The notes under the pieces are model-generated. The model was given only the letters and a program-made list of their open reading frames with translations. It did not search any database and had not been told where the DNA came from. 64,000 nt of DNA from Amoebophrya sp. A120 (taxonomy: Eukaryota; Protista; Dinoflagellata), in assembly GCA_905178155.1 (NCBI GenBank), contig CAJINV010000004.1, positions 1,998,391 to 2,062,390 of the forward strand, given 5' to 3'. Positions 10,304-64,000 of this stretch are shown in pieces (positions within the stretch are counted from its first letter, which is position 1; each line of letters begins with the position of its first letter). Made by a program: the position numbers and the translations under genes.

Positions 10304-10751
10304 TTTGAGGAAGATGTTTGTTGTTTTTCTAACGAAAACCAGCCCTACAATTGCAGTTGGAGAAAGCGGTCACAGAAGGTAGTGATAGGGACGCAAATTT
10401 TCTACAAACTGACTCGTGGCAGAGCTTCGCTACCATTTTCTCTCTTTACATCCGCATCGTTCGCGTCACTCATATCTTTTGCGTCACTCATGTCACATGA
10501 CGCTCGTTACTGAGGCGTGATGAACACCCAGGAGCACATACCACGAAGGGAAGCAGATACCTCCAAAGCTGTTTCGTTTATTGAGAGCAACCAGGTATTA
10601 GCCGTGTAGGCAACCTACAATAGGCAAAAAGTGGTGCTGTCACCAACCTCTAGCATTAGCTCAGACCGGCATGGATATACCACGACCAGGAGCGCTAGAG
10701 CACGCTACATTAGCGGCATTGTTCTTCGAAGAAAGATGTAGCTTGCGCCAC

Positions 10752-10844
10752 TTACTTCTTCTTCATGGCCATCATCTTCTTCATGGACATCTTCTTCATG
10801 ACCGGTGCCGGGGCGGCAGCCATCATCTTCATCATCTTGGCCAT
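10752..10844 (-). CDS. 30-aa Met/Lys-rich basic micro-protein MAKMMKMMAAAPAPVMKKMSMKKMMAMKKK
   Basis: Intact ORF, paralogous to 10220-10303. Length differences between the two preserve frame, while the flanks are dissimilar. Confidence 0.75.
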   Translation of the reverse strand: MAKMMKMMAAAPAPVMKKMSMKKMMAMKKK

Positions 10845-11784
10845 TGTGTTGGTGGTGTTTTTTGGAATAAATCCCTTTGTCCCTACAGTTTATTATGGTT
10901 CATCCCAGTTGTGATTCATGTTCCAAATGCCTTCGCGCATTTTACCGCTCAGGACGAATCTCTGCTTGTGATCATTTCACTTCTGTGTTGGTTTATCTCA
11001 CTTTGCGTTATCACTCATTCATGTCCAACAAAAGGTGTCTTTCATTTATCCTTATGTTTGACGCTCACCATTCTCTCTTCTGTGCATCATGTTTCGCGCA
11101 TATATTGACTGTTACATGTAACGTGCACAAGGGATTCTATGACACTAGCGACGAAGAACAACATCTATGCGAGGATCTTCTGCTGCGGCCACATACCTGC
11201 AGACACGCGCTGGTGCGTGAGCGACCTGCGTACTTAATCATCGGTCGCCACCGACTGGAATGGAATTCACACCACATCCAGGACGGGAAAACACGATCGA
11301 TTTTGGATTCCGAGTCACGTGATCCGCTGGGCCTCTTCGTACGAAGACGACCCTCAATACATCATTTTGGTTCCTGTCCTTTACGGACCTTCCTTTGCGG
11401 AGGGAGGAGACGTTGCGGTTGATGTAGGCGGCGACATCGCGTAGAGCAACGGGTCTACGAGAAGAATACCGCGTCGTATGAAGAACGAAATCGCGCTTCA
11501 ATCTGTGTAATGCGAATAGGTTGTTGCTCGTCCGCTTCACAGCTAACACGATCGCTCTTCTTAATGATGTCGGTTTTGACTTTCCCTCATTCAGGCACAT
11601 GTCGCATACTTGGTGTAACGCTTTGCGACCTGGCTCTCAACTCATGCAAATTCGATCCGCACTGTTTGAAGGCGTGATTACATTCTGATAGCAGGCGGAT
11701 TTCTTCTCAGCTGGCCAGCAAGATGCACATGAGCACGAATTTTCCGACAACGTTCATCTCATGGGTCATCGTCGTAAGGCACGC

Positions 11785-12147
11785 TTACTTCTTCTTGTAG
11801 ATCATGCCCAGCTTCTCGTGCTTCTTGCCCACGTAGGTGCTGCCGTTGTAGACGAAACTCGCCTTGCCGGCCTTCTTGGCGGCGAGCATCAACACGAAGT
11901 ACGCGTTGAGCTTCTTCTGTAATGGTTTTGACAAAGAAGAGTGATATGCTGGAAGTGGAAAGTTCCTTCTGTAGGAGAAACATGTTGGTACAAATGTAGA
12001 GAAAGTTTTCAGTTTTCATGTTTGAAACAGACTGGAACTCAAGGAAAACAACGTTCATCCAGAAAAAATTACCATGCCGCTCATCTTCTTCATGGACATC
12101 TTCGCCATCTTCATGGACGACATCTTCATCGACATCATCTTGGCCAT
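11785..12147 (-). CDS. 68-aa basic protein: MK-rich tail plus non-DVNP basic domain KKLNAYFVLMLAAKKAGKASFVYNGSTYVGKKHEKLGMIYKKK
   Basis: Exon 1 12073-12147 (MAKMMSMKMSSMKMAKMSMKKMSGM), phase-0 GT-AG intron 11917-12072, exon 2 11785-11916. Strong G/C third-position codon bias. Confidence 0.85.
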
Positions 12148-12688
12148 CTTTGCGGAGGTTTTGTTATGTCAAGGACACAACAGACTGCTTCTCAATCTAC
12201 GTTTTCCAAACACAACAGAAAATGCCGCTTTGATCTGTACCTCAAAGTCAAAGCCAAATCTTCCACTCTCACATTGGCAATGGTTCCTGCACTGGCTCTA
12301 AGCTGATGCTCCAACACTTCCTCCCTCTCAGAAATACGGTCTCTCTGTGAGGAACAGAACCTGCTCCCAGCAACACAGCACCGCCCGCAACACGGGTGGA
12401 TTTTGAAGAACGCGCCAGGCGCAGTAGTGTATACTTATCCATCCTTTTTCAATGGTGTTACCACAGAAGACGGACATATCATGTTTCACACGGGAACTAT
12501 GGATGAACCACTTGTTCTACCGCGGGCCCAGGAGCCAAACCGTGCAAAAGTCTGCCACCATTGTGTGCACAGCGTCACAACCACAGGTCACAGAACTTTT
12601 CATCAGAAGGTCGAGGGACCAGAGGCGATCTTGATTTGCCAACACTCCATCAAGCACTGCGGATAAGACGATGTGTCTGAGTGTCCAC

Positions 12689-13244
12689 TTACTTGTAGAA
12701 GGACTTGGCCTTGGCCAAGAAGGCCTTGCCCTTGGCGGTCTTGCCACCGACCGGGACGAAGCCCTTGATGCCCAAGGCCTTGCGGGCCTTGCTGACGGCG
12801 GCGTTCCAGGCGGAGATGCGCTTGTAGGCCTTCTTGCCGGCGGCGGACTTCTTGATGGACACGATCTTTCCGGACTTGCTCTTCTTCAAGTCGGACTTCT
12901 TGAGGCCACCGGAGGTCTTCACCTTGGTGCCCTTGAAGACGGAGGATTTGCCGCGCTTGCCCTTGGCGATGGTGGACTTCTTCATGGCCATCTTCTTCAT
13001 GCCCATCTGTGTGTTTGAGTTTGATTGTTCCGTTCGAATGAATTGTGCGCACACATCACGCATTTAGTGATCGTCCAATAATATGCTGATACTTAGCATC
13101 ATTTCTCATGTACCAACAGGAAAAAACATGATACGACAGCATCAAAACAAGAAAATCAAGTACCTTCATGGACATCATCTTCATCTTCATGGACATCATC
13201 TTCATGCCCATCTTCATGGACATCATCTTCATCATCTTGGCCAT
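12689..13244 (-). CDS. DVNP: Dinoflagellate/viral nucleoprotein (132 aa)
   Basis: Exon 1 13164-13244 (MK-rich tail), GT-AG intron 13007-13163, exon 2 12689-13006. Carries the hallmark STIAKGKRGKSSVFKGTKVKTSGGLKKSDLKKSKSGKIVSIKKS...WNAAVSKARKALGIKGFVPVGGK. Confidence 0.97.
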
Positions 13245-49534: not shown

Positions 49535-51741
49535 TTAGTGTTTGCCTTTTGTTCCTTTGCCGAATCCATCGTGTTCGGTGCAAACACAGCACGCGTGGCA
49601 CCATATAATGACCTTCTCCTTGGCTCCGAAGAAGATATCGCCTTCATTCAAATTGTTTTCACCTTTATTGTCGTATTTGTACTCATTCAATCCACCTTTC
49701 GCGAAGATCGCGGCGCCGGAGTCGGAATCTTTGGCTTTGCCTTTGCCTTTGCGATCGCGGTAAGAATGGTACATCTTTGCGAATGTCTCGCCGCACACCG
49801 AAACCGAATGTAATTTTTTGCCTTTGCTACTGTGGAAAGTGTAGATATTCCTTCCGTACGTTTCCCGGGGTTCAAGTTCAACGTAAGTTACTCGGTCATA
49901 ATCTTTGCAGTTCATCAACTCGCCGAATCCAGGAGGCTCGCCGCGTGAGAGGAATATCTCCATGTCGGCCGTTTCCGAGATTTCGCATTTTCCGTACAAC
50001 TCGTAGGCGTGCGCGTAACCTTGCACTAAGGTTTCGGGGCCGGTGCCTTCTCCGCTGCTGCCACCTTCGCTGGGGTTGCCCCGCTGCTGACAAGGAGCGG
50101 AGGTATGCGGATAGTTGCTCAGAAACAGAGAGATCGCCTCGTCCACAGTCAGGCCAGCGAGTTTCGAGCAAGTGCGGCTAGTTGCAGTTAGCGAGCGGTC
50201 CGTTGTAGTCCCTGCCATAGTCTTATTTTCCAAGCTCTTTATCACCTCTTCCAAACACGAGAAGTACTTGCGGAGCAAACCAATGTTTTCGTCGGCGAAA
50301 AGTCGCAATGCGCTCCACCGCTCGCTGAAAGGCAATACCTCGCCTATGAGTACCGCATTGCGACCCTTGTGGCAGTGTGAACACTCTGCCACGTCCTCTA
50401 TTTTTCCTTTTCCTTTCTTCCCTGTGCTGCTTAAAATCCAGGCCGACTTTTCCCAGAAAAAATTCTGAAAAAAGTGGCGCTTTTCCAATTCTTCGAAAAG
50501 CTGCGCCAGTCCGTCTTTCCGCGCGACGCAGCCCAGCAGAACTTGCATACATTCCCGGTACTTCGGCGCAAGCCAAGACGAGGATCCGATTTTGAAGCAC
50601 CTGTGGAGAGTTTGAGTTTTCGTATGTAGCAATGTACTTCACCAGCAAGAGATTGATGCATAACACCAAATCAATTTCGCTATCCATCAACTAATAGATA
50701 CTGTATTTGATCAGGGAGCACCTACTTGAAAGCGAGAATATACTTGCCAAGGAAGTCCGCAACGACAGCAGGGATTATTTCCTCCGCTTCCAGCTGGAGA
50801 GCCTGCTTTGCCAGTTCGAAGCAGCGGCCTTCAGCTTCATCAAGGCGGTCCCACTCCAAAACCCCCAGCGCTACTTCCAAGCAAAAACTCTGTCTCTGGG
50901 ACACCGGAAAAAGTTGTCCGCCGCTCTGCTCTTCGTGTTTCTTCCACTCCGAAGGAGGAAGTTCCACGATTGCGCGGCACAGATCTGTGAACCCACTGGT
51001 AACTAGGTAGCAACCGCCCAGGAGACAAGGAAAGCAGTTCCCCCCAAGCGCCGACCTCCTCTCTTTTTCCGGATCCTGCAGGTAGACGCGGTCGTAGATG
51101 AAAGTGCGCGCCTTCTCGACGGTGTTCAGGTCCTTGATCAGCTGCCGCACTCGCTTCCTCCAATCGATCCACTCCCTCGACCCATCGCCATCCTCCTCGA
51201 GCGTGAGCCCGCTACTCACGATGACAAATTGGTACACGATGTGACTATTTTCGAAATTCAGTGCGGTGTCCGGAGATAAAAACGCGTCTGCAGCGGAGGA
51301 AGATGAATGCTCGTTGTCCTTTGTCCCACCGTCGCCACTAGCTTGCCCTGGGAGTGCCTCTTCCTCGCCCGTTCCGTCACTCGCCGGCCCGAAAACGCTG
51401 ACGGCATCCTCGTGCTCCGACAGCATGCTGCAGTCTTCTTCAATTTCCCCCTCCGCATCCTCGTCTTCGCCCACGCCACACGACTCCGCGTCCTCAGCGT
51501 CTTCCACCATAAGCCACCGCAATAGCGAAGCCGGCGGAAAGAGCGGACCGTCGGGGCCGAAGAAGGGGGCTAAGATCGTTCCTGATATTGCGGATAGATC
51601 GTGGACGGTTTTGGTCTTTGTAGGGTCCAGTGTGACAACATGCTCCGCACCGGTGAAATTTCGCACGCGGAGGCTCACGGTAGCAGGCGGGGACGGCAGG
51701 GCTTCCTGCGGTTCAGGCTGTGATGCTGATGGCGTCGACAT
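49535..51741 (-). CDS. Uncharacterised family, paralog 1 (ubiquitin-like N-terminus); 2 exons
   Basis: SLRVRNFTGAEHVVTLDPTKTKTVHDL. A GT-AG intron at 50601-50725 joins ORFs 50722..51741 and 49535..50632 in frame; YRECMQVLLGCVARKDGL matches the other paralogs. Confidence 0.75.
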
Positions 51742-52500
51742 TTTTTCGTTGGGAAGAGAGCGAGAAATCCACTAGTTTCCAGTTGTAAATGATGAACGGC
51801 AACACGCCCCAAGATATTTTTTCACTGCGGTAGCAGTACTTCTCTGTTTTTATTGATATTGATCATTTACTGCTAGAAGCGAACGAGAAACCTGAATGAC
51901 CGAATATGGATTCTTCTATTGGTGAACGCGTCCGTGTGTGAAGCGATAAAATTAACTTTTACTTGGATAAAAATTTGTCGTCGTAAACGCAAACTTGTCT
52001 TTGGTCATCCGAGAGAAAAACTCAACCATGATAAGAATACTAAGCTGCTGCAGTTGTTGCCAAAAAACCTGACCTGAGCGGTCGTTTGTGCCACTTAAAG
52101 CCTGTCGCATCTCATCTTGCATTACCTGCACGGCGAAATGCTATTGCGTGAAAGATCTCACTTTGTTTTCTTGCGTAGAGCAGACATTGATCAGAAGATA
52201 ATATCGCACTACATGTACAGTCTATTGCGGACGAACCGCGCAACGTAGATCGACCGTGAAATGGAGGAAAAGATCCTTTACGCTGTGCTGCGCCAGCTCC
52301 AGTACGAGAACAACCAAATTGTGCGATAAGTCCATCGCAAGCACAACGACCGGAAGCCTGTGTGCAAATCTTTTTTGCCTTTCTTTGCACTGCTAGAAAT
52401 CAGAACTTGAACTTCAGTCGTGATCGAAAGAAAACTTGTAAGTACACTGCTTCTGTCTGGCCTGCTTTGTCAATATCTTGAGTGTGGAAGTGATCTCCTG

Positions 52501-53937
52501 CTAAATTACCAACACTGCAGAGGAGTCGTTAAGCAGGGTCAGCCACAGTTCTTCGACGTCAGTCCACGACACGCCCGCTTCGTGCTTGGCCAATGCCTGG
52601 CGGAAACAATCTTGGAGATTTAAGTACTCGATTTGTCTTCTCAGTGGCTGCAGTTTCGCGAGGTCGGACAATGCGCTAAATTCTAAGTCGTAGCTGATTT
52701 TCAGCTCGTTCAAGAGGTCCTGCAGACGCGTGTAGCAATCTAGGTGGGCGCGCAGCTGTACAGTAAGGCTGGCCCTTAGGCCGTTAACAACGTGCGAAAT
52801 GTCGTAGCGTAGCTGCTCGTCTTCGTTGCTGCTATCGTCCGCTGTGGATGTTGAAGCATACCCGCGACTAACTTCCGCTAGCCACTTTCCTTGTGTGTTT
52901 AAAAGATGCTCCCAGTGGCTGCGGCAGACATCCAGGCCCAGCAGCTTTTCTTCGAGCCGGGAAAAAAACTGCACTACTGCGCCGCGGCTGGCAATGTGTT
53001 TGAGCAGCGCCCTGATGTACGATGGTGAAGAGGTGATATACACGGAGAAAAACACATCAGCCACACAAATATGATCAACATCCGCCACGGCTAGTGCCTG
53101 CTCAAGTACGGCCTCATCCTCGTCCTGCCAGTAGCTGTCACGCAGGCCGTTCGCGACGTACCGCGCGTACTGCTGGCGCTCCGCCACGACGAAGGCCCGG
53201 CCGTTGCTGCGGCGTTCATGCTTTTCCCACTCGGACGAACCGAGTCTCAACGCGGCGTGTGCTAGGTGCACCCACCCTTGCGTCACTACTGCTCTACCAG
53301 TGGCAACATGACTGGACTTGTAGGGAAGGAGAACGTATCCACTTGACCAAACTGGCTCGCTGCGACAGGCGTCCTCGAACTTCCTGTCTTCGTGGGCACC
53401 GCAAAAAAAAAATTCGTGCGCGTCCGCCACGGACGTAATGCTTCCGTCGAGCTCCAAGCAGATCCTTTCTGCGTGCGCGCGCTCCGATTCGCCCTCCCGG
53501 CGCTGCAGGATTGGCGCAAGAGGGGTATACGCGATCGTGAATTGGTACACGTAGCTCGAGATTCCAAACTCAAGCTCCGTCCCTGACGCAAGGAATTCGC
53601 TCGGGATTGCGTCCTCCTCTGCCGGTGTGTTCTCTTCTAGCCCGCGGCGTTCCTCGTCGTCCTCCGCGTCCGTCGCGTGATCGTCGCGGACCAGGAGCCA
53701 CCGAAGTAAGGTGCTCGGCGGTACGAGGTCGGTCGTGAAGTCGAAAAACGGCGCGAGTAGTCTTCGCGGATCGCGCGACAAGTCGCGGATGGTTTTCACC
53801 TGTGCGGGATCCACGTCAATTGCGTGTTCCACACCATTGAGATTCCGGATTCGGAGCGAACAACTCCCTGTCGGCTCAGCCGGCGGCTGAGCCTGCGGGT
53901 CGGAGGAGGCTGAAGCTCTGCCGTCGGGGGCTGCCAT
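52501..53937 (-). CDS. Uncharacterised family, paralog 2 (ubiquitin-like N-terminus)
   Basis: Intronless ORF; SLRIRNLNGVEHAIDVDPAQVKTIRDL, YQFTIA, EWEKHERRSNG, WTDVEELW. Confidence 0.8.
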   Translation of the reverse strand: MAAPDGRASASSDPQAQPPAEPTGSCSLRIRNLNGVEHAIDVDPAQVKTIRDLSRDPRRLLAPFFDFTTDLVPPSTLLRWLLVRDDHATDAEDDEERRGLEENTPAEEDAIPSEFLASGTELEFGISSYVYQFTIAYTPLAPILQRREGESERAHAERICLELDGSITSVADAHEFFFCGAHEDRKFEDACRSEPVWSSGYVLLPYKSSHVATGRAVVTQGWVHLAHAALRLGSSEWEKHERRSNGRAFVVAERQQYARYVANGLRDSYWQDEDEAVLEQALAVADVDHICVADVFFSVYITSSPSYIRALLKHIASRGAVVQFFSRLEEKLLGLDVCRSHWEHLLNTQGKWLAEVSRGYASTSTADDSSNEDEQLRYDISHVVNGLRASLTVQLRAHLDCYTRLQDLLNELKISYDLEFSALSDLAKLQPLRRQIEYLNLQDCFRQALAKHEAGVSWTDVEELWLTLLNDSSAVLVI

Positions 53938-54493
53938 ATCTTTTTTCTTACTCGACTGATCCGTTGTGATTTTCGTTTTCCTCTTAGTGTAATAAAAAAA
54001 AGTCAAGCAGATTCCAACTAAAAATCACTCTTTCTTCGCGACATTGGATTGCCGAAGCAGACGAACCTCTCTCAAGTTCGTTTGGAGATGACGAGGAATT
54101 CGAATTACTTAGATCTGCTACAGAAGTACTCCCCATGCCATCCTGGCTCTCTCTTGCAACGAACAAGGAAAGAATACAACTAACTACACTGAGGCGCTCT
54201 CCTTTGAGTTCTCTCATCTCGTGCAAAAGCGATACAACCTTCTTGGAGTTGGGAAAACACATGCAGCGCACCATGCCTACTGCCCATGTGCGACTACCGA
54301 GATGGATGTCTTGGTGGTAGTAGAAGTTCATCCTGCATTACAAGGATTCACAGCACATCGAAATAAAGCGATTCGGCTTTTCGTACGAATATAAAATTTG
54401 AAATTATCAAGTCACTAATTCGCTGAAGAGTCCTACACAACTGATGCTGTATGTATACTCGTCTGAAATCCGGAGCAACTATGTCTCCCGCCA

Positions 54494-56150
54494 TCAGTGT
54501 TTCCCGCTGATCTGATAATCTAAAATCCGCCTGATGAAAGCGAATTCCGTGTAGCGGACGTCCTCCCGATCCCAGCCGCCGGCCGCCAATTTACGCCCGT
54601 ACCCCTTCTCCGCCAGCCAGCCCTCCGGGCCCCACGCGGCAAACTTGCGCTGCTCGACCTCGCTGCCACACAGGTCCGCGGCGTCGTGTTTGAATTGCTG
54701 CAGCGCCTCCAGGTCGCTCCCCAGCGGAGAGAAGTGGGTCAGCGGGCCGAAGTGGTGGGCGCACGCACCCAGCGTGGCGTCAATCAGGAGTTTGTCCACG
54801 TCCTCTTCCGTCACAACTGGCTCCTGCATGGAATCGTGAAATTCGTCAAACTTCTTCACTGCTTCCAAATAGCTTCTCAGAAACGCTCTCCTCATGTCGC
54901 GCACGTCGTCGCGGGCGAGGGTCCGCTGCTCCCGCGGCATGTCTTCGTAGTGAAAACACACGTATCCCAGATCGTTCCACGCCGCTGCGGCGGTTGTGAA
55001 CTCCAAGTCCAAAAAACGGAGACTGCGAGGGTCATCTTGATCTTCACGAGCATTTTTATCATTCCCGTCAACTTCATCGCGGGATGAAGCCGCGGAGGAT
55101 GTCGTGCCAGAAGTGCCAGTCACTTTACCTTCAAAAATCCTGGCTTCCCCCCCATCCGCTGTACCATTTCCAAAAATCGCCACCATGTTTCCCGCGTGCA
55201 AGTCGCCATGGCACGTGACGATTTTCCCGCCGGCCGCGGTCAACGGTGTGAACATCGGCTCTACGTATTCAGCCAGCCATTTCGCGGCCTCCGATCCTGG
55301 TGCTTGCTTAGCTTGCAAGACCGCCTCGCCCAAGAGCTGCTCCGTGCGACAGCTATAGATACCACCAAATATGGGAGGCGTTAGGATCGCGATCCGATCG
55401 AGATGTTGAGACGGAAGAAGTAGACAACTCGTCCTTTGTAATATCCCTGTACGACTGCCCCAACGGCGGAAATTGCTTCTTCAACCTTTCGCGGAACGGC
55501 TCGTACCAAGTTGGAGGGACGGATTGATGCAGCCGCGCGACCTCGCGCCCCAGAAGTTTCATGTCGGCGATGGTTTGTAGTGCGAAGAATGGAGGTTCGA
55601 CGGTTTCGTTTGTTCCTTTCTCCTGGTCAGCATCTTGCCGTTCTCCTAACTGCAACCACTCGTTAAGAAACCAATCTACGCCGCTCGCAACGTGCTTTGG
55701 GAAGAGGTTTTTCTCGCTCATGATTTGAATGGCGGCGATGGTGCGCTCTTCCGAGTCGGGGTCCAGTTCCGGGTCGCGCGAGCAGAATCCCAGAGTCAGG
55801 GTTTGTCTTTCTTTTGCAAGGGTAGAAGAAGCAGATGAACTTGCTCCACCCTCGCTCGCGGTAGGACGAGCAGTGGTTGATACTGCATTTTTTCCATCTT
55901 CAATTACTACACCCTCGCTGGGGCTGGCCACAGAGGGTTTATTGTCAACAGTAAACTCCAAACTGATCTTGTAAGTCTTGCTCCCACCGCATCCGCTCCG
56001 GTCGTGTACTTGGATGGAATCGTGTAGAATGGTGTGCTTGGCCGGGTCAAAGAGATCACTCGGATGTTCTGAGAGGATCTTCGCCACAAAAATACCAAGG
56101 CTTTCAAGATCCTCGCGAAGAGGGAAAGATTTGGTGTTGGCTGTCGACAT
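54494..56150 (-). CDS. Choline/ethanolamine kinase / APH-like phosphotransferase, interrupted by a frameshift near 55355
   Basis: SGCGGSKTYKI, VTCHGDLHAGNM (Brenner motif), FLDLEF...NDLGY. The two ORFs are offset at TGG TGG TATC TAT AGC. Confidence 0.7.
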
Positions 56151-56977: not shown

Positions 56978-59767
56978 TTACAACTTATGCTGCTCCATCA
57001 TCGCGCGCAGCTCCTCCGATGCCACTTCGGACAGGATCCCCTCGGCGACCTCTATCAAGTTTGCGGGCTTTTCCGTCGAACCCTGGCCTGCGCCGGTTTC
57101 CCCGCAGAAAAAAATCTTTTCCAGTTCTCGCCGAGTTTCCCAGCGCATCTGTATCCCGGTGGGAAATCCACTTTTTGTTTTTCGCTTTTTTCTAGTTTAT
57201 GCTGAGCTGTGTAAATGACAGAGACCGAAATCTTTGCTGCAGTTCTTCTTCTAATATGTCCAAATTTAAAACAACTTTTTTTCCATTGTCTCTGAATGTA
57301 AAGGAGCCCTTTCGATGATCCAGCAACACGACAGAGCGGTCGTGACTTCTGTGAAGATATTTTTTTATACTTCTGAACAAGGACTGACGTGAAAAACAAA
57401 TTGGTGGATTTCCCCTGTCTACCCTGTCCCAGCAGCTCGAAAGCCATCGGCTGGGAAAAGCCGAGTATGCGCAGGGCCGTGTACCCGACTATGCCGGTCC
57501 GGTGCAAGCCGGCAGAGCAATGAACCGCTACTGTTTTTCCGCGCAGCAAGCTCGCGGCCACCAAGGCCGCGGCCCGTGTCACCGCGGTTCGATCTTTCTC
57601 CGCATCCTGCATTGCTGCGCCTGAGATGGGGAGATGTACCCACTCTGGTCTTCTTCTATTCGGGAGGACTGCGAGGTCTTCATTTTCGAAAGGAACTTTC
57701 GGTGTTGACGTGGAGTCGACCTCTTCAGGTGCATCAGCAATCAATGCAGGAGGCTCGGCCTGAACCTCTTTTGGAGAGGAACAGGGTCGTCGGCCACGTA
57801 GAAATCTTGTTGAAATACAGTGGCCAAGAGACAGAATTTCTGAAGACTCATCGTGATTTCTTTGATCAGCACTCCATTCGTCTCCATCGGCACACACGGT
57901 GTTTGCCACCGCCGCGAAGCTCAACCCCCGTTGCTGCAACTCGTCGTCCCGAAGTAGCGTCACGACGAAATCCAGTCCCTTGGCCCAACTCTCCAAAGTT
58001 TTCATTCCGGGCGCCCCACATAGCACCAGCCTGCCTTTGCGGACTGGGAAACAAGAACCGGGTCTGCTCGTCGGTTTTTTAGACGCAGAAGGTTGATGTT
58101 CTTCGATAACTCTAGTAGTACCAGCCTTGCTAGAACTTGAGCTCGTGGCTGCTGCTATAAAACTACCGCCCACGATAATTTCCTTTGCCGCTAACAGCCG
58201 CGCCTCGGGGGAAGCAAACCAAGTAACTCTGATCTTTTCTTCATCAGTCTGCTCAACAGCAGATGCAGTAGAATTCTGGTTGGAGCTACCACTCCCGCTT
58301 TTCTTTTTTGCCGCGAGCCACGCGAAAAGAATCGTCTTGGTGCCTTTGTTCATCGCGTCCTGTGCCATCAATCCGACTTCCTTCGGGGAAGAGAAATTGG
58401 GCGCAACTGTATCCCGCAAAAACTCCAATTCCTTGTCTGCGAGTTCCACGCGCTCCTGCAACAGACGCTCCGCGACTGCACCGTAATCCAACACGCCACA
58501 ATTCCGCATTTTCACCACCGCCTCCTCCACACCGGCCCAAGATTTGGCCCCGGCAATTACGTGGTCGAGCCACTGCTTTGTCGGCTGCGGCACGCCGCTG
58601 CGCGCCAATTTCTTGTACACCGCGCTCTTCACCTTGTACTTTTTTAGAAGCGGCACTGCCATCTCGACCACGAACCCCTCCCGCAGGTCCGCCAGGGTCC
58701 CGCAGCGGTCCAGCACCGCCAGCTTCTCGCGCAATTCCGCCACCGTGCACACCTCACAGGGCGCGTGGGTGCTGGGCGCGGTAAGCTTTATTTTTCGTGC
58801 GACCGCTTCCAAATTCGTGGAGGATATAACTTCGCCGGTACTAGCGTCGCAGGCGTAGAGCAAGACGAGCCTGTTTTCCCCGCGGTTGTTTTCCACCTTG
58901 GCATCCTTGTCGTGAATCAACTCGAAACCAAGGGTCCAGGCCTCCATTTGTTCGGAAAGGATTAGAGCCGTCTCTTCCGACAGCAACTCCCTCGCCAGCT
59001 GCGTCTGCAACGTCCGGATCGCCCCACGGGTGAATAGAAGCAGCTCCCCGCGGAAGACCGTGACGAGGACACAGCTACCGTCAAACTTTTGCATACAGGT
59101 CACCGGCAGTTGCTGTCCTCGGGGAGAGTCAGGAGAACCACTCGATGCATCGGGTTCTTGGGTTGGTGGTTTCCTGGAATCGGGTTTGAAAGCGTCGCTC
59201 CCATCGGTGTGTGCAACCGCCGACTCAAAAATGTACCGCTTCGCCTCCGCACAGTGTTCGTACCCGTGGAACTTGACCATCGGTTTCACCACGATTTCTG
59301 GGGGACAACCGGATTTCTTGAACAGCACGCACCCCCGCGCCACTTGCAGTATGCAGAAGCAAAAGCGTTGATAAATATAGTCGTGGAATATGCATATCAG
59401 TACAGTATTCTTCAACTACGGGCTGCGTCAGGTTTTAGAATGGAAAAACAAAAAACAATGACAAATTTTCCATGGTAGAAAAAACTATGTACTTACTTAC
59501 TCTTAGTCCTACTCACAACAAGCGGCCCACCATAATGTCAATCGCTTTGTAATGCGTACCCATGCGCCAGTCCCAGTTTTCCGGCGGGGTGGACTCGTTG
59601 TAGCTGTCGGTGTAGTTAACGACCAAAAGCTCGCCGTCCCGAAAATCGGAGCAGGTAATCTTGACGTGGTTTCGTTTCTCCTGCTCCCGGTAGTACGCGA
59701 GCAATCCGCGCAGGGCCTCCGCATCGCCCGATCTGGCAAGGTCCGCGAGCGGGTGCAGAGTAGTCAT
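56978..59767 (-). CDS. T4 Rnl1-like ATP-dependent RNA ligase fused to a C-terminal cysteine (PTP/DSP-type) phosphatase
   Basis: LLVVNYT, ARGCVL, KPMVKFH, motif I QKFDGS, GFELIH, motif IV EGFVV, motif V KVKS; phosphatase P-loop VHCSAGLHRTG. GT-AG intron at 59343-59559. The 3' exons are approximate. Confidence 0.8.
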
Positions 59768-60488: not shown

Positions 60489-62060
60489 TCACACATTCCG
60501 CCACAGATCCTCGACATCAGACCACTTTAACCAAGTGAGATCGTACTTTTCGCATTCTCGCTCCATCAATTCGCGGAAATGGGCAGTTACTCCAGCGTGT
60601 TCGAGCCTTTCTCCGTTGGTCTTGAGATCCTCGACCTCTTGTAGCGGCTGCATGATTGGCTGGAGATCATGGTCGATGTCCAGCTCCTGGAGCAGCGCAG
60701 AGAGGTATCGCCAAGCTTTCAGAAGCATTTTCATCTTCGCGTCCATTTGGTGGACAATGTGCACCCGGAGTGTGTTCTCGAGGTCTTTGCGTGCAGACGC
60801 GACATCGTATACGAGCGGCTTTGTCCTCAGGCGTGCCAGAAAGAGGCATGCGTGTGGCGAGAGGCATTTTTTCAACGTTCTGCAGCCGAGATGCTTAGCT
60901 TCGATAGCAGAGGACATCTCCGCCAAGCGGCCTTTGCTCGCAATGCATTGGATGAGCAATTTCATGTAGTCGCGGAAACGGTCTGCAGTACCACGATCAT
61001 TCGCATCGCAAACGATTCTCAATGCCACCCAATCGAAATCCACGGCAGCTATTCCCAATTCGAGCGTCTGCTGCAACAGGGCGAGGTAGACTTCCCTGCT
61101 GGTGCTCATCCCGGCGAGGTCGTGGCCCTTGTCTCCCTCGTTCTCGTGGTCCTCGTCTACCTCGAACTCGTAACGATTACCGAAGACTTCCCTTGCGACC
61201 TTAAAGCAGAAATCTTCGCGAAGCGCTAAACTAAAGTACAGCCCACCACTCTGCAGCTCGTGCTTTCGCCACTCCTCAGCGCTCATCGCAACAGCTGCAC
61301 GCACTAGATTCCATTGGCCCCGCGAATCCGGTAAAGGTTGCGACGCAGCAGCACGTGGTGGCTCATTCTGGACCAGGTGCGCGACCGGTATGCAACCGTT
61401 CCCGACGTACAGGAGGTCCCAATCTTTCGCCGGTATATTGGCGTAGATGCGGTCGTAGATGAACGCTTGCGCGTCTTCCACGGTTGTCAGACTGTCAACC
61501 ACCCCGACCGTACGAGTTTCCCACTCCTCCGGCGATTCCTCCTTCGCGCGAGGACGCAGGTTGAACCCGCTGTGCGCGATGACGAACTGGTACGCAATTT
61601 CTCTGCCGAACTCCATCTCCGATCCCGCATCAAGAAAAGCACTCGGCGTCGCATCACTGTGCTTATCTCCTGCTGTTTCGCCTTGTTTTCCGTCCGCGGT
61701 GGCTTCTTCCCCAGAACTATCCCCGGCTTCGCTGCTGCCATCACTATGATTCGTGTAGTCAAGATCTGCGCCATCATCACACCAACTGTTCGCACCGTCT
61801 GAGTCGTCCGCCTCCACCTCATCGCGAATTTGGATCCAGCGGACCAAGGAGGGCGACGGAACCAGGTCCGTCTCCAGGTTGAGGAACAGCGAGAAGAAAT
61901 TCGTGCTGTAGAGGTCGCCCACTTTCGACACCTTGCTAGGGTCAACCGTGATGGTGTGCTCGGTGCCGGTGAAATTCCGGATCCTGATGCGTGCTGTTGA
62001 TGAGTGCGTGCTGGCGTCCACCGGGGACGCACCACGGAGTTTTTCTGAAGCTTGACTCAT
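60489..62060 (-). CDS. Uncharacterised family, paralog 3 (ubiquitin-like N-terminus)
   Basis: 523-aa intronless ORF; RIRIRNFTGTEHTITVDPSKVSKVGDL, YQFVIA, EWRKHELQSGG, WSDVEDLW. Confidence 0.8.
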   Translation of the reverse strand: MSQASEKLRGASPVDASTHSSTARIRIRNFTGTEHTITVDPSKVSKVGDLYSTNFFSLFLNLETDLVPSPSLVRWIQIRDEVEADDSDGANSWCDDGADLDYTNHSDGSSEAGDSSGEEATADGKQGETAGDKHSDATPSAFLDAGSEMEFGREIAYQFVIAHSGFNLRPRAKEESPEEWETRTVGVVDSLTTVEDAQAFIYDRIYANIPAKDWDLLYVGNGCIPVAHLVQNEPPRAAASQPLPDSRGQWNLVRAAVAMSAEEWRKHELQSGGLYFSLALREDFCFKVAREVFGNRYEFEVDEDHENEGDKGHDLAGMSTSREVYLALLQQTLELGIAAVDFDWVALRIVCDANDRGTADRFRDYMKLLIQCIASKGRLAEMSSAIEAKHLGCRTLKKCLSPHACLFLARLRTKPLVYDVASARKDLENTLRVHIVHQMDAKMKMLLKAWRYLSALLQELDIDHDLQPIMQPLQEVEDLKTNGERLEHAGVTAHFRELMERECEKYDLTWLKWSDVEDLWRNV

Positions 62061-63234
62061 TGCCAGAGCAATAAAAAATCAATATACTTTTCTGGTTCAA
62101 TAATGTAGCTAAACACTCACGGAAGTTCTAAACTTCGCTGCAATTCGTCCTTCGAGCGAGGAGACCAAAAAGCGGCCGAGCGGATTCAAAAAGCAAACGA
62201 AGCCGACGAATCGACGACCAAGATTTTCAAAGAGAGCAGTCACTCCTTCTGTCCCTCTCGTCTCTCGCCAAGATGTCTTCTTTCTCAGCACGATAACAAT
62301 GATGAACAATCAAACCAGATCGATGTAATAATGTGTTCGCATAAAGCCGCGGTGAATCCTCAGGAAATGGGGAATACTCAGTCGATGTACCTTTTATGGT
62401 CAGAATGAGGAAACAAGAATGAGCACTCCAGGAGAGTGGTGATTGAATGAGGATTTTTGAATGGAATGGTTACGGAGCATGTCGCGCAGCACGGAGAAGC
62501 CCTGCAACCCGCGTCAGCGATTTCCGTTGCCCGGAATTCGCCCAGCGAGGCTCGGTTCTCGTGACACAATAAATTTGGTTTGTTGATACTCCTCTGTCAC
62601 TAGCACAATCTCGCGATGAACTGGCGATTTTTCCGACGAGAAACGCTAGTCAACCGCTACTGTGAGTGGTAGAGGTATGAAATCGAAAATATCAAATCGT
62701 AGCCAGTTCTATCAAAAAAATCAGGTAGAGCTTTTGCAACGAAACATCGTAGTTCCGCAATAATAGTGCGACACTAAGAGCGTCACACCTGTGAAGGAGT
62801 TTGATGGTAGATAGACCTTTGTTCGGACCTCTACATGGAGGTTTAGAAGTTACGGCTTGTTGCCTTGCTCACGAGGAGCCACCTTAGGATTCGCTCTCGA
62901 AAAGGGTGATACCCTGGGGTCCACTCAACAAGCTAGGAATCATACAATAATTACCAGATATAATTTCTCGCATCAGAATAGTTAACTGCTCGAAAGTGCT
63001 GGAATCACAAGGATCATACAAGTTCAAATTCGTGTCTTGGTCTCGGAAACATGCATGGACAATTGTTATTTTCTTGAAACTATGACTCTGCTTCTGTTCT
63101 CCGGTGAAAGAAGAGGATGAACAGGAACAAAAAACTTACATAGTTATATCGAGAACAGAGAACCGTAAGAATGCACAAATAGGAGCTCAAAGACTGAAAT
63201 AAATGCAGTCTTTTCATCTTGTCGTACCTCGTCC

Positions 63235-64000
63235 CTAACGCGAACGGAGCTTGCCCCTTCCCTTCCCACCCGCGCGAGCCGCGCCGGCGCCCTGCATGCG
63301 CTCCAACTCGTCGGCTACGAGTTCCTCAACGCCGGCAGCCGGCTGCAGACACACGGCCACCTTGGTGCACTTTTTCCCGACGCTGGCCCACATGGTGGAC
63401 CTGTTTGCCATGCACTTACTGTTGCCGACGATGGTGAGCGACTCTTTCGCCCGGGACAGGGCCACGTTGCAGCGGTTCGGATTGCTGCAAAACCCGATGG
63501 TTCCCTCGGCGTTGGACCGGGAAGTGAGCAGGATGATGTGGTCGGCTTCCGAACCCTGGCAGGCGTCCACCGACACGATTTGCAACCTGTTTCCTGCAAG
63601 TTCATCTAGACCCGCCTTCCGCCACACCGCTTGCGCCAACCGCACCTGCGGCTTGTACATGCAGATCACGTACACGCTGCTGTTTGCACAGGCCTTCAGC
63701 TTGCGGGCCGCCTCGCGGACGGCGACCACCGTCTGGGCCGCGTTACAGAAGGACGTGCCCACCTTCGCTTCCGCTCCAGACACCTCGACCCAGCGGAGCC
63801 GGGGGTCACCCGCCGCGTCCTTCGTACCGCGCAGCCGCTGCTTGTTCTTCCCGGTGCGGAGCTGCTTTTGGTAGAACAACTCGGACACCAAATCGCAGAT
63901 TTCCGGGGGCATCCGGTACTGCTCCTTCAAACTTTGCTGGTCCGCCCCCGCGTCGCCGCACCGCTCCATCAAACTGCGGTCGATCTGATACTCGCGGGGC
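63235..64000 (-). CDS. UPF1/NAM7-like superfamily 1 helicase, C-terminal RecA2 domain (5' part outside the window)
   Basis: SLMER, LKEQYRMPPEI, SELFY, SVDACQGSEAD, IGF...NRCNVALSRAKESLTIVGN. Confidence 0.9.
   Translation of the reverse strand, partial: PREYQIDRSLMERCGDAGADQQSLKEQYRMPPEICDLVSELFYQKQLRTGKNKQRLRGTKDAAGDPRLRWVEVSGAEAKVGTSFCNAAQTVVAVREAARKLKACANSSVYVICMYKPQVRLAQAVWRKAGLDELAGNRLQIVSVDACQGSEADHIILLTSRSNAEGTIGFCSNPNRCNVALSRAKESLTIVGNSKCMANRSTMWASVGKKCTKVAVCLQPAAGVEELVADELERMQGAGAARAGGKGRGKLRSR

Follow-up and report, generated by a model that had tools for sequence, protein, structure and literature searches.

A 64-kb stretch of DNA from Amoebophrya sp. A120 (64,000 nucleotides, hereafter the window) carries, on the minus strand at 12147–11785, a spliced two-exon gene whose product belongs to a large, unnamed protein family that is also encoded in viral contigs; the gene is real, and its product probably belongs with the virus-shared dinoflagellate nucleoproteins. 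The best explanation, and a reasonably probable one, is that a viral core DNA-binding module was captured by dinoflagellates, was fitted with a tail of the DVNP type, and serves as a minor chromatin protein beside DVNP. DNA binding, a nuclear location, a role in virions, and the direction of transfer are the parts of this explanation that we infer from the observations set out below.

Gene structure and transcription

Exon 1 (12147–12073) encodes a 25-codon Met/Lys/Ser tail of the DVNP type and is spliced in RNA contigs to exon 2 (11916–11785), which encodes a 43-residue basic domain of one helix and three strands that is shared with viruses and is followed by a TAA stop; the two are separated, at the boundary of tail and domain, by a 156-nt phase-0 GT-AG intron (12072–11917). 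The splice joint 11916/12073 is present in contigs of runs X1, X5, and X7 from three studies, where X5 is RNA by its record and X1 and X7 are RNA by an automated guess; the two-exon gene that had been drawn from the letters alone is thereby confirmed in its exons, its intron, and its joint. The DNA-like run X18 covers positions 10815–12730 at even depth and unspliced, with the intron retained. The spliced product is a protein of 68 aa containing 17 Lys, 13 Met, and a single acidic residue (pI 10.4), and the GC3 of its gene is 0.99, compared with 0.54–0.83 in 7 other long ORFs of the window.

Run X18, on which the copy number rests, also contains a second genomic copy of the gene, in diverged form, and run X10 contains diverged transcribed copies. 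The raw-read depth over the gene is below 1 in X21, near 0 in X22, and about 4 in X23, and its RNA cover lies far below that of DVNP and of the tail-only peptides described below, depth being a poor measure here. Next to the gene, a 219-nt skip at 11473–11691, with GT..AG on the plus strand, is seen as joint 11472/11692 in X1, X5, X7, and X10 (four RNA runs from four studies) and is absent from X18; it probably marks an intron in an antisense transcript, one with no evident ORF that runs over the 3′ end of the 68-aa gene, or, alternatively, it may be a non-canonical sense intron.

The gene cluster with DVNP

The neighbouring DVNP gene (13244–12689, minus strand; PF19060, E 3.5e-19) consists of a tail exon (13244–13164), a 157-nt phase-0 intron (13163–13007), and a core exon (13006–12689), and its joint 13006/13164 is found in X1 and X7. 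This succession of tail exon, phase-0 intron, and globular exon is the layout of the 68-aa gene as well, and the tail exons of the two genes align with each other; the sequence-only reading was thus right to describe a DVNP-style MK tail on a gene lying directly downstream of DVNP. It had further proposed exon shuffling, a putative mechanism. The phase-0 intron falls at the boundary of tail and domain as it does in DVNP, whereas the introns and 200-nt flanks of the two genes align no better than shuffles, so that any duplication or common origin of the layout would have to be old. In eukaryotes, DVNP is reported from dinoflagellates only, according to the sections consulted of PMC6723414.

DVNP and the 68-aa gene are followed, head to tail on the minus strand, by two tail-only Met/Lys peptide genes, which refine the earlier description since they were absent from it; one encodes 30 aa (10844–10752), is transcribed (raw reads in X21, X22, and X23), and has paralogs elsewhere, and the other encodes 27 aa (10303–10220) and has RNA cover in X1 and X5. 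An identical 12-mer opens all four genes of the cluster and is found nowhere else within the 64-kb window. Both peptide genes are intronless and without a Pfam match, and their products are candidate protamine- or H1-like peptides. The 30-aa gene has the deepest raw-read cover in the cluster, with loose read ends from its many other copies; its transcript has a poly(A) near 10577 and a 5′ end near 10883 that sits directly on a library adaptor, which we take to be a template-switch oligo, and no spliced leader was seen at this 5′ end.

The gene order of the window as a whole is compact and mostly one-stranded (compare the parts consulted of PMC7789003), which, with the presence of DVNP, points to a probable early-branching dinoflagellate of syndinian type. 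Three further minus-strand ORFs (50725–51771, 52504–54024, and 60492–62078) are paralogous, with 26–34% identity at E<1e-30, a similar N-terminal stretch, and no Pfam match; three others on the same strand, at 63238–63999, 57058–59415, and 54497–55480, give AAA_12 helicase, dual-specificity phosphatase-like, and choline-kinase-like matches, respectively. Rfam gave no match in the window.

The 43-residue domain

An AlphaFold2 model built on 72 sequences (pLDDT 92) places a helix at residues 5–16 and strands at 20–23, 26–33, and 37–42. Across 314 distinct domains, N4, F21, Y23, and Y28 are conserved at 99–100%, several Lys/Arg positions are conserved above 90%, and the median net charge is +11; the predicted fold is accordingly described as a helix with three strands, a conserved aromatic core, and a basic surface. 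The initial picture of a compact basic domain made of a helix and a beta-hairpin-like element holds for the helix, the compactness, and the basic character, and gives way in the model to three strands in place of one hairpin. A model of a two-copy complex, for which the alignment was not used, was uninformative (score 0.01).

Searches against known families placed the domain in none of them. Exon 2 has no Pfam match at E<=10 and no match in PHROGs, where two phage-type copies reach only E 0.07–0.09; the 72 family members have no Pfam family in common, ribosomal and RNA-binding families included, and none of them matches HU/IHF; NCBIfam returned 0 families in 25 members. Among the 25 of 46 weak Pfam families listed for the 72 members, HU/HLP, histone-fold, MC1, and ribosomal families do not occur, except for one L18p match (E 0.02) in one member. 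The first impression that the domain lacks any DVNP, histone-fold, or HU/HLP motif is therefore borne out by the Pfam and NCBIfam scans and by the domain HMM scores, and the Pfam, NCBIfam, and PHROGs searches likewise assigned the domain to no known non-chromatin family, the outcome that would have spoken against a chromatin protein.

Structural comparison was similarly unproductive. A PDB sequence search with the domain gave one chance row (E 0.22); VIA-align with the 43-residue model reached a best Z of 3.6 (rmsd 2.6, 40 aligned) and no Z>=5 among 48,161 chains; and Foldseek gave no E<=0.001 in BFVD or PDB, with weak HU rows at E 2.4–3.6. With a model of 43 residues, such fold searches cannot be read as evidence for a new fold or for a different one, and the Atlas feature matches for exon 2, all below 0.9, serve as leads only.

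Occurrence of the family

A phmmer search of 1.84 billion representatives returned 89 matches, of which 86 contain the domain, and a domain profile search returned 596 clusters. The pI is at least 10 in 196 of 202 domain proteins, and the domain forms the C-terminal end in 178 of them. The Atlas clusters for one member are 100% viral and mostly Nucleocytoviricota, and GVMAG-named loci make up 9/11 and 20/43 of two IMG/VR locus sets. In giant-virus homologs, Lys/Arg tails precede the domain; their loci have a GC mostly of 0.22–0.36, have capping enzyme, Erv1/Alr, NUDIX, topoisomerase II, and ribonucleotide reductase genes as neighbours, and encode copies with up to 79% identity to the window protein. 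Architectural variety includes a coiled-coil-like N-terminal motif in 45 of 398 distinct proteins, three domain copies in tandem at locus L018, and natural fusions to an HMG box (P0019, E 1e-7), to DVNP (P0092, E 1e-5), and to a PLA2-like domain (P0048, E 1e-3).

The claim that the protein is shared with viruses thus stands, homologs having been found in giant-virus, Polinton-like, and phage-like contigs; the narrower expectation that matches would be limited to giant viruses and dinoflagellates fails, as the family extends into the latter two groups. Contigs L119 and L122/L173 have a Polinton-like gene content (packaging-type ATPase, D5 primase, GIY-YIG, and capsid-like genes) and are putatively assigned to Polinton-like viruses on this content together with capsid motifs presumed to be diagnostic. 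In L173, the domain gene is followed by a second small basic ORF, rich in His and Lys (L173:10145–10336), and in L119 such an ORF is, by eye, apparently fused behind the domain (L119:5001–5285). Bare domain ORFs (<=55 aa) account for 46 of the 94 IMG/VR domain ORFs, many of them near membrane-protein, lysin, and packaging-ATPase genes; in the phage-like contigs (L112, L136–L172) of up to ~100 kb, a bare ORF of 42–47 aa lies among small membrane-protein, lysin, and ATPase genes.

The phage-like contigs merit a separate remark. In L112, L136–L169, L172, and L179 (IMG/VR, up to 102 kb), genes for many small membrane proteins and for lysins occur together with those for a packaging-type ATPase and for a conserved, jelly-roll-like protein of ~230 aa that is a candidate capsid protein; these contigs possibly represent an undescribed group of large tailless phages. 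The model of the putative capsid protein has a pLDDT of 47, and it matches only generic jelly-roll-type structures (best Z 5.7). A tblastn search with a phage-type copy found nothing in 50,697 named phages. Among 185,579 prokaryote genomes, two loci were retrieved, one of which lacks the domain by HMM, the other lying in a phage-like contig.

The Met/Lys tail, by comparison, was found in 0 of the 94 IMG/VR domain ORFs and in 0 of 82 metagenome-contig domain ORFs (some contigs being entered twice); two degenerate DNA patterns for the junction of tail and domain, searched as exact matches, hit 0 viral contigs; and no DVNP-like ORF lies near the domain in 129 loci. About 30 Met/Lys-tailed or junction-matched proteins were recovered, mostly from contigs of 0.5–1.1 kb whose records carry no taxon names; one derives from MMETSP and two from a marine-eukaryote catalogue, so that the family may be unevenly distributed among cultured dinoflagellates. 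Several candidates were dropped as spurious, namely P0005, P0084, and P0088, which lack the domain by HMM, locus L129, and long unrelated cluster mates (e.g., P0003).

The QxGG motif in viral tails

The tails other than Met/Lys tails are rich in a short motif: QxGG occurs 129 times in 192 such tails, against 4.7 occurrences expected from shuffles (~27-fold), and 72 of the 192 carry it, giant-virus tails such as those at L001, L009, and L095 included; in a control of 805 neighbouring ORFs, it occurs 59 times against 42 expected. None of the 7 tailed host-type rows of sufficient length contains QxGG, and Gln and Gly are nearly missing from their tails. The adenovirus protease, as described in the parts consulted of PMC4246237, cleaves the precursors of core proteins behind XGG motifs, with Gln accepted at P4. 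Taken together, the enrichment and the adenoviral cleavage pattern suggest maturation sites in virion-core proteins, and QxGG in giant-virus tails is proposed as a candidate site of a maturation protease. A literature search on the motif gave nothing relevant.

Phylogeny and direction of transfer

A tree was computed from 82 labelled domains over 43 columns; it is unrooted, its support values are rough, and ~232 unlabelled rows were left out. The labels were set partly by hand, with P0065 removed and P0002, P0004, P0209, and P0224 added (P0002 and P0004 by the junction only). The window protein falls in one subfamily, together with the majority of the tailed rows and 16 giant-virus rows; the other holds most phage-like rows, both Polinton-like rows, 11 giant-virus rows, and 4 tailed rows. 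The tailed rows as one clade are rejected (AU p 0.003), and 7 changes are needed on these 43 columns without a root, which speaks against one simple capture. This pattern fits repeated capture with tail grafting, and it would also fit poor resolution or mislabelled rows. A virus-to-host direction is suggested because the spread of the domain is wider and its architecture richer in viruses.

Comparison with known systems

The closest parallel is DVNP (PF19060). Both proteins are small and very basic and have a globular core in common with giant viruses. DVNP bears a lysine-rich host tail that is lacking in its viral copies (PMC6723414, in the sections consulted), and the host copy of the present family likewise bears a lysine-rich N-terminal tail, with exon 1 aligning to the DVNP tail exon and 0/94 IMG/VR domain ORFs having a Met/Lys tail; exon layout, start 12-mer, and adjacent position complete the resemblance. 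Unlike DVNP, however, the 68-aa protein has a core of half the length and without Pfam, HMM, or profile relation to that of DVNP (no match of exon 2 at E<=10; hhalign 0.2% against a four-sequence profile), its domain also occurs in Polinton-like and phage-like contigs, and its RNA level is apparently much lower.

The bacterial HU-like HLP/HCc proteins offer a second comparison, as laterally gained, small, basic nuclear proteins, which the 68-aa protein would join if its presumed nuclear location is correct; the present family differs from them in having no HU/IHF Pfam match in 72 members and in having viral relatives, with one true match in 185,579 prokaryote genomes. HLPs are reported absent from early-branching dinoflagellates in the sections consulted of PMC6723414. 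Among DNA viruses, mimivirus gp275 (MC1-like; bioRxiv 10.1101/2024.02.22.580433), ascovirus P64 (PMC6163548), and adenovirus VII and mu (PMC4246237) are described, in the portions of these sources consulted, as basic virion-core proteins, and they share with the present family the combination of a small domain and cationic tracts. The adenovirus precursors are cut at XGG, and QxGG is enriched in the viral tails here, in a family of putative core proteins; this family has no sequence match to any of the proteins just named in Pfam or in PDB sequences. Finally, the HMG box (PF00505) is a basic architectural DNA-binding domain, as is predicted here, and P0019 fuses an HMG box to the domain; the two differ, nevertheless, in showing no HMM similarity and in having a helix with three strands versus three helices, and only the separate N-terminal part of P0019 matches HMG (1/72).

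Alternative explanations

Other explanations account for parts of these data. It is conceivable, though unlikely, that the protein is nuclear with a domain that binds RNA or another protein, in a nucleolar, ribosomal, or splicing role, and with a tail that alone touches DNA or acts as an import signal. The basic charge of the protein fits RNA binding equally well; the present model, in which a helix lies on a sheet of three strands and aromatic and basic residues are exposed, has a layout that is common in RNA binding; and the low RNA depth suits a regulator rather than a bulk packager. Set against this are the fusions of the domain to HMG-box and DVNP, the clustering of the gene with DVNP and tail-only peptides, the bare copies that phage-like contigs carry among genes of virion type, and the lack of a ribosomal or RNA-binding Pfam family common to the 72 members. 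The distribution of QxGG, enriched in viral tails and absent from seven tailed host-type rows, would also be expected of an antiviral decoy, that is, a captured viral core protein without QxGG that is packaged with viral DNA and blocks core maturation, and repeated capture from two subfamilies resembles recurrent antiviral domestication; seven rows are few, however, and their tails are almost free of Gln or Gly, and the gene lies within a DVNP cluster whose start and codon bias it matches and is transcribed in several unrelated samples, all of which makes such a decoy quite improbable.

It is highly improbable that strong divergence has merely disguised the domain as a member of a known family, be it the helix-strand segment at the C-terminus of DVNP or the first helix of an HMG box. 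Scores of the domain HMM are close to zero on the DVNP of the window and likewise on the HMG portion of P0019 and the DVNP portion of P0092, two proteins that contain HMG and DVNP, respectively, as domains separate from the 43-residue one; the model combines a single helix with three strands, and HMG boxes are all-helical. What favours this explanation is an hhalign placement of 21 columns on the helix-to-strand segment of DVNP, which carries the 0.2% probability given above (E 0.25, the DVNP profile being built from just 4 sequences), and an N-terminal motif that we take to resemble the start of an HMG box. Hardly credible, lastly, is a recent endogenous-virus relic whose tail was acquired fortuitously and which serves no function in the cell: the identity to giant-virus copies, as high as 79%, and the low RNA depth would agree with it, but the host-type GT-AG intron is spliced, the GC3 of 0.99 stands far from the GC of giant-virus loci (mostly 0.22–0.36), no viral genes were detected in the 18 other long window ORFs scanned, diverged copies exist in X18 and, transcribed, in X10, and about 30 tailed homologs have a conserved junction.

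Implications for dinoflagellate chromatin

Under the preferred explanation, in which a captured viral module became a minor chromatin protein, the folded domain would grip DNA without sequence preference, its basic surface and sheet lying on the DNA backbone. In viruses, it would act as a DNA-binding module of the virion core, either bare or behind Lys/Arg tails that may be trimmed at QxGG by a maturation protease. After transfer from virus to host, possibly more than once, the host would have swapped the viral tail for its own Met/Lys tail exon, a module used also on DVNP and as free peptides; this tail could contribute nuclear import, charge neutralisation, DNA bridging, and help in compaction.

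Literature searches, with most subscription papers outside their scope, found no description of the family, and a prior mention is possible; the parts searched of the DVNP surveys (PMC11953307 with its supplements, bioRxiv 10.1101/2024.02.09.579734, and PMC13693241) contain nothing on the domain. The protein players named in the consulted sections of reviews are histones, DVNP, and HLP/HCc (PMC6723414, PMC13725142, and PMC10449503). A wider reading, offered tentatively and with less than even confidence, is that a single Met/Lys tail exon of the host, which is also expressed by itself as protamine-like peptides, was joined repeatedly to viral DNA-binding cores for the post-nucleosome chromatin of early dinoflagellates, with DVNP as one product; the unnamed domain would then be an ancient virion-core module of giant viruses, Polinton-like viruses, and tailless phages that was captured at least 2 times, and the four-gene cluster would be a counterpart of the histone gene cluster.

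The finding touches the question of how dinoflagellates pack their DNA without bulk nucleosomes. For the viruses, the widespread small domain is a candidate genome-packaging protein in those giant viruses for which none is known. For the dinoflagellates, if the explanation is true, a further and unrelated virus-shared component with a DVNP tail would mean that proteins were captured from viruses repeatedly and that the tail serves as a portable module of domestication.
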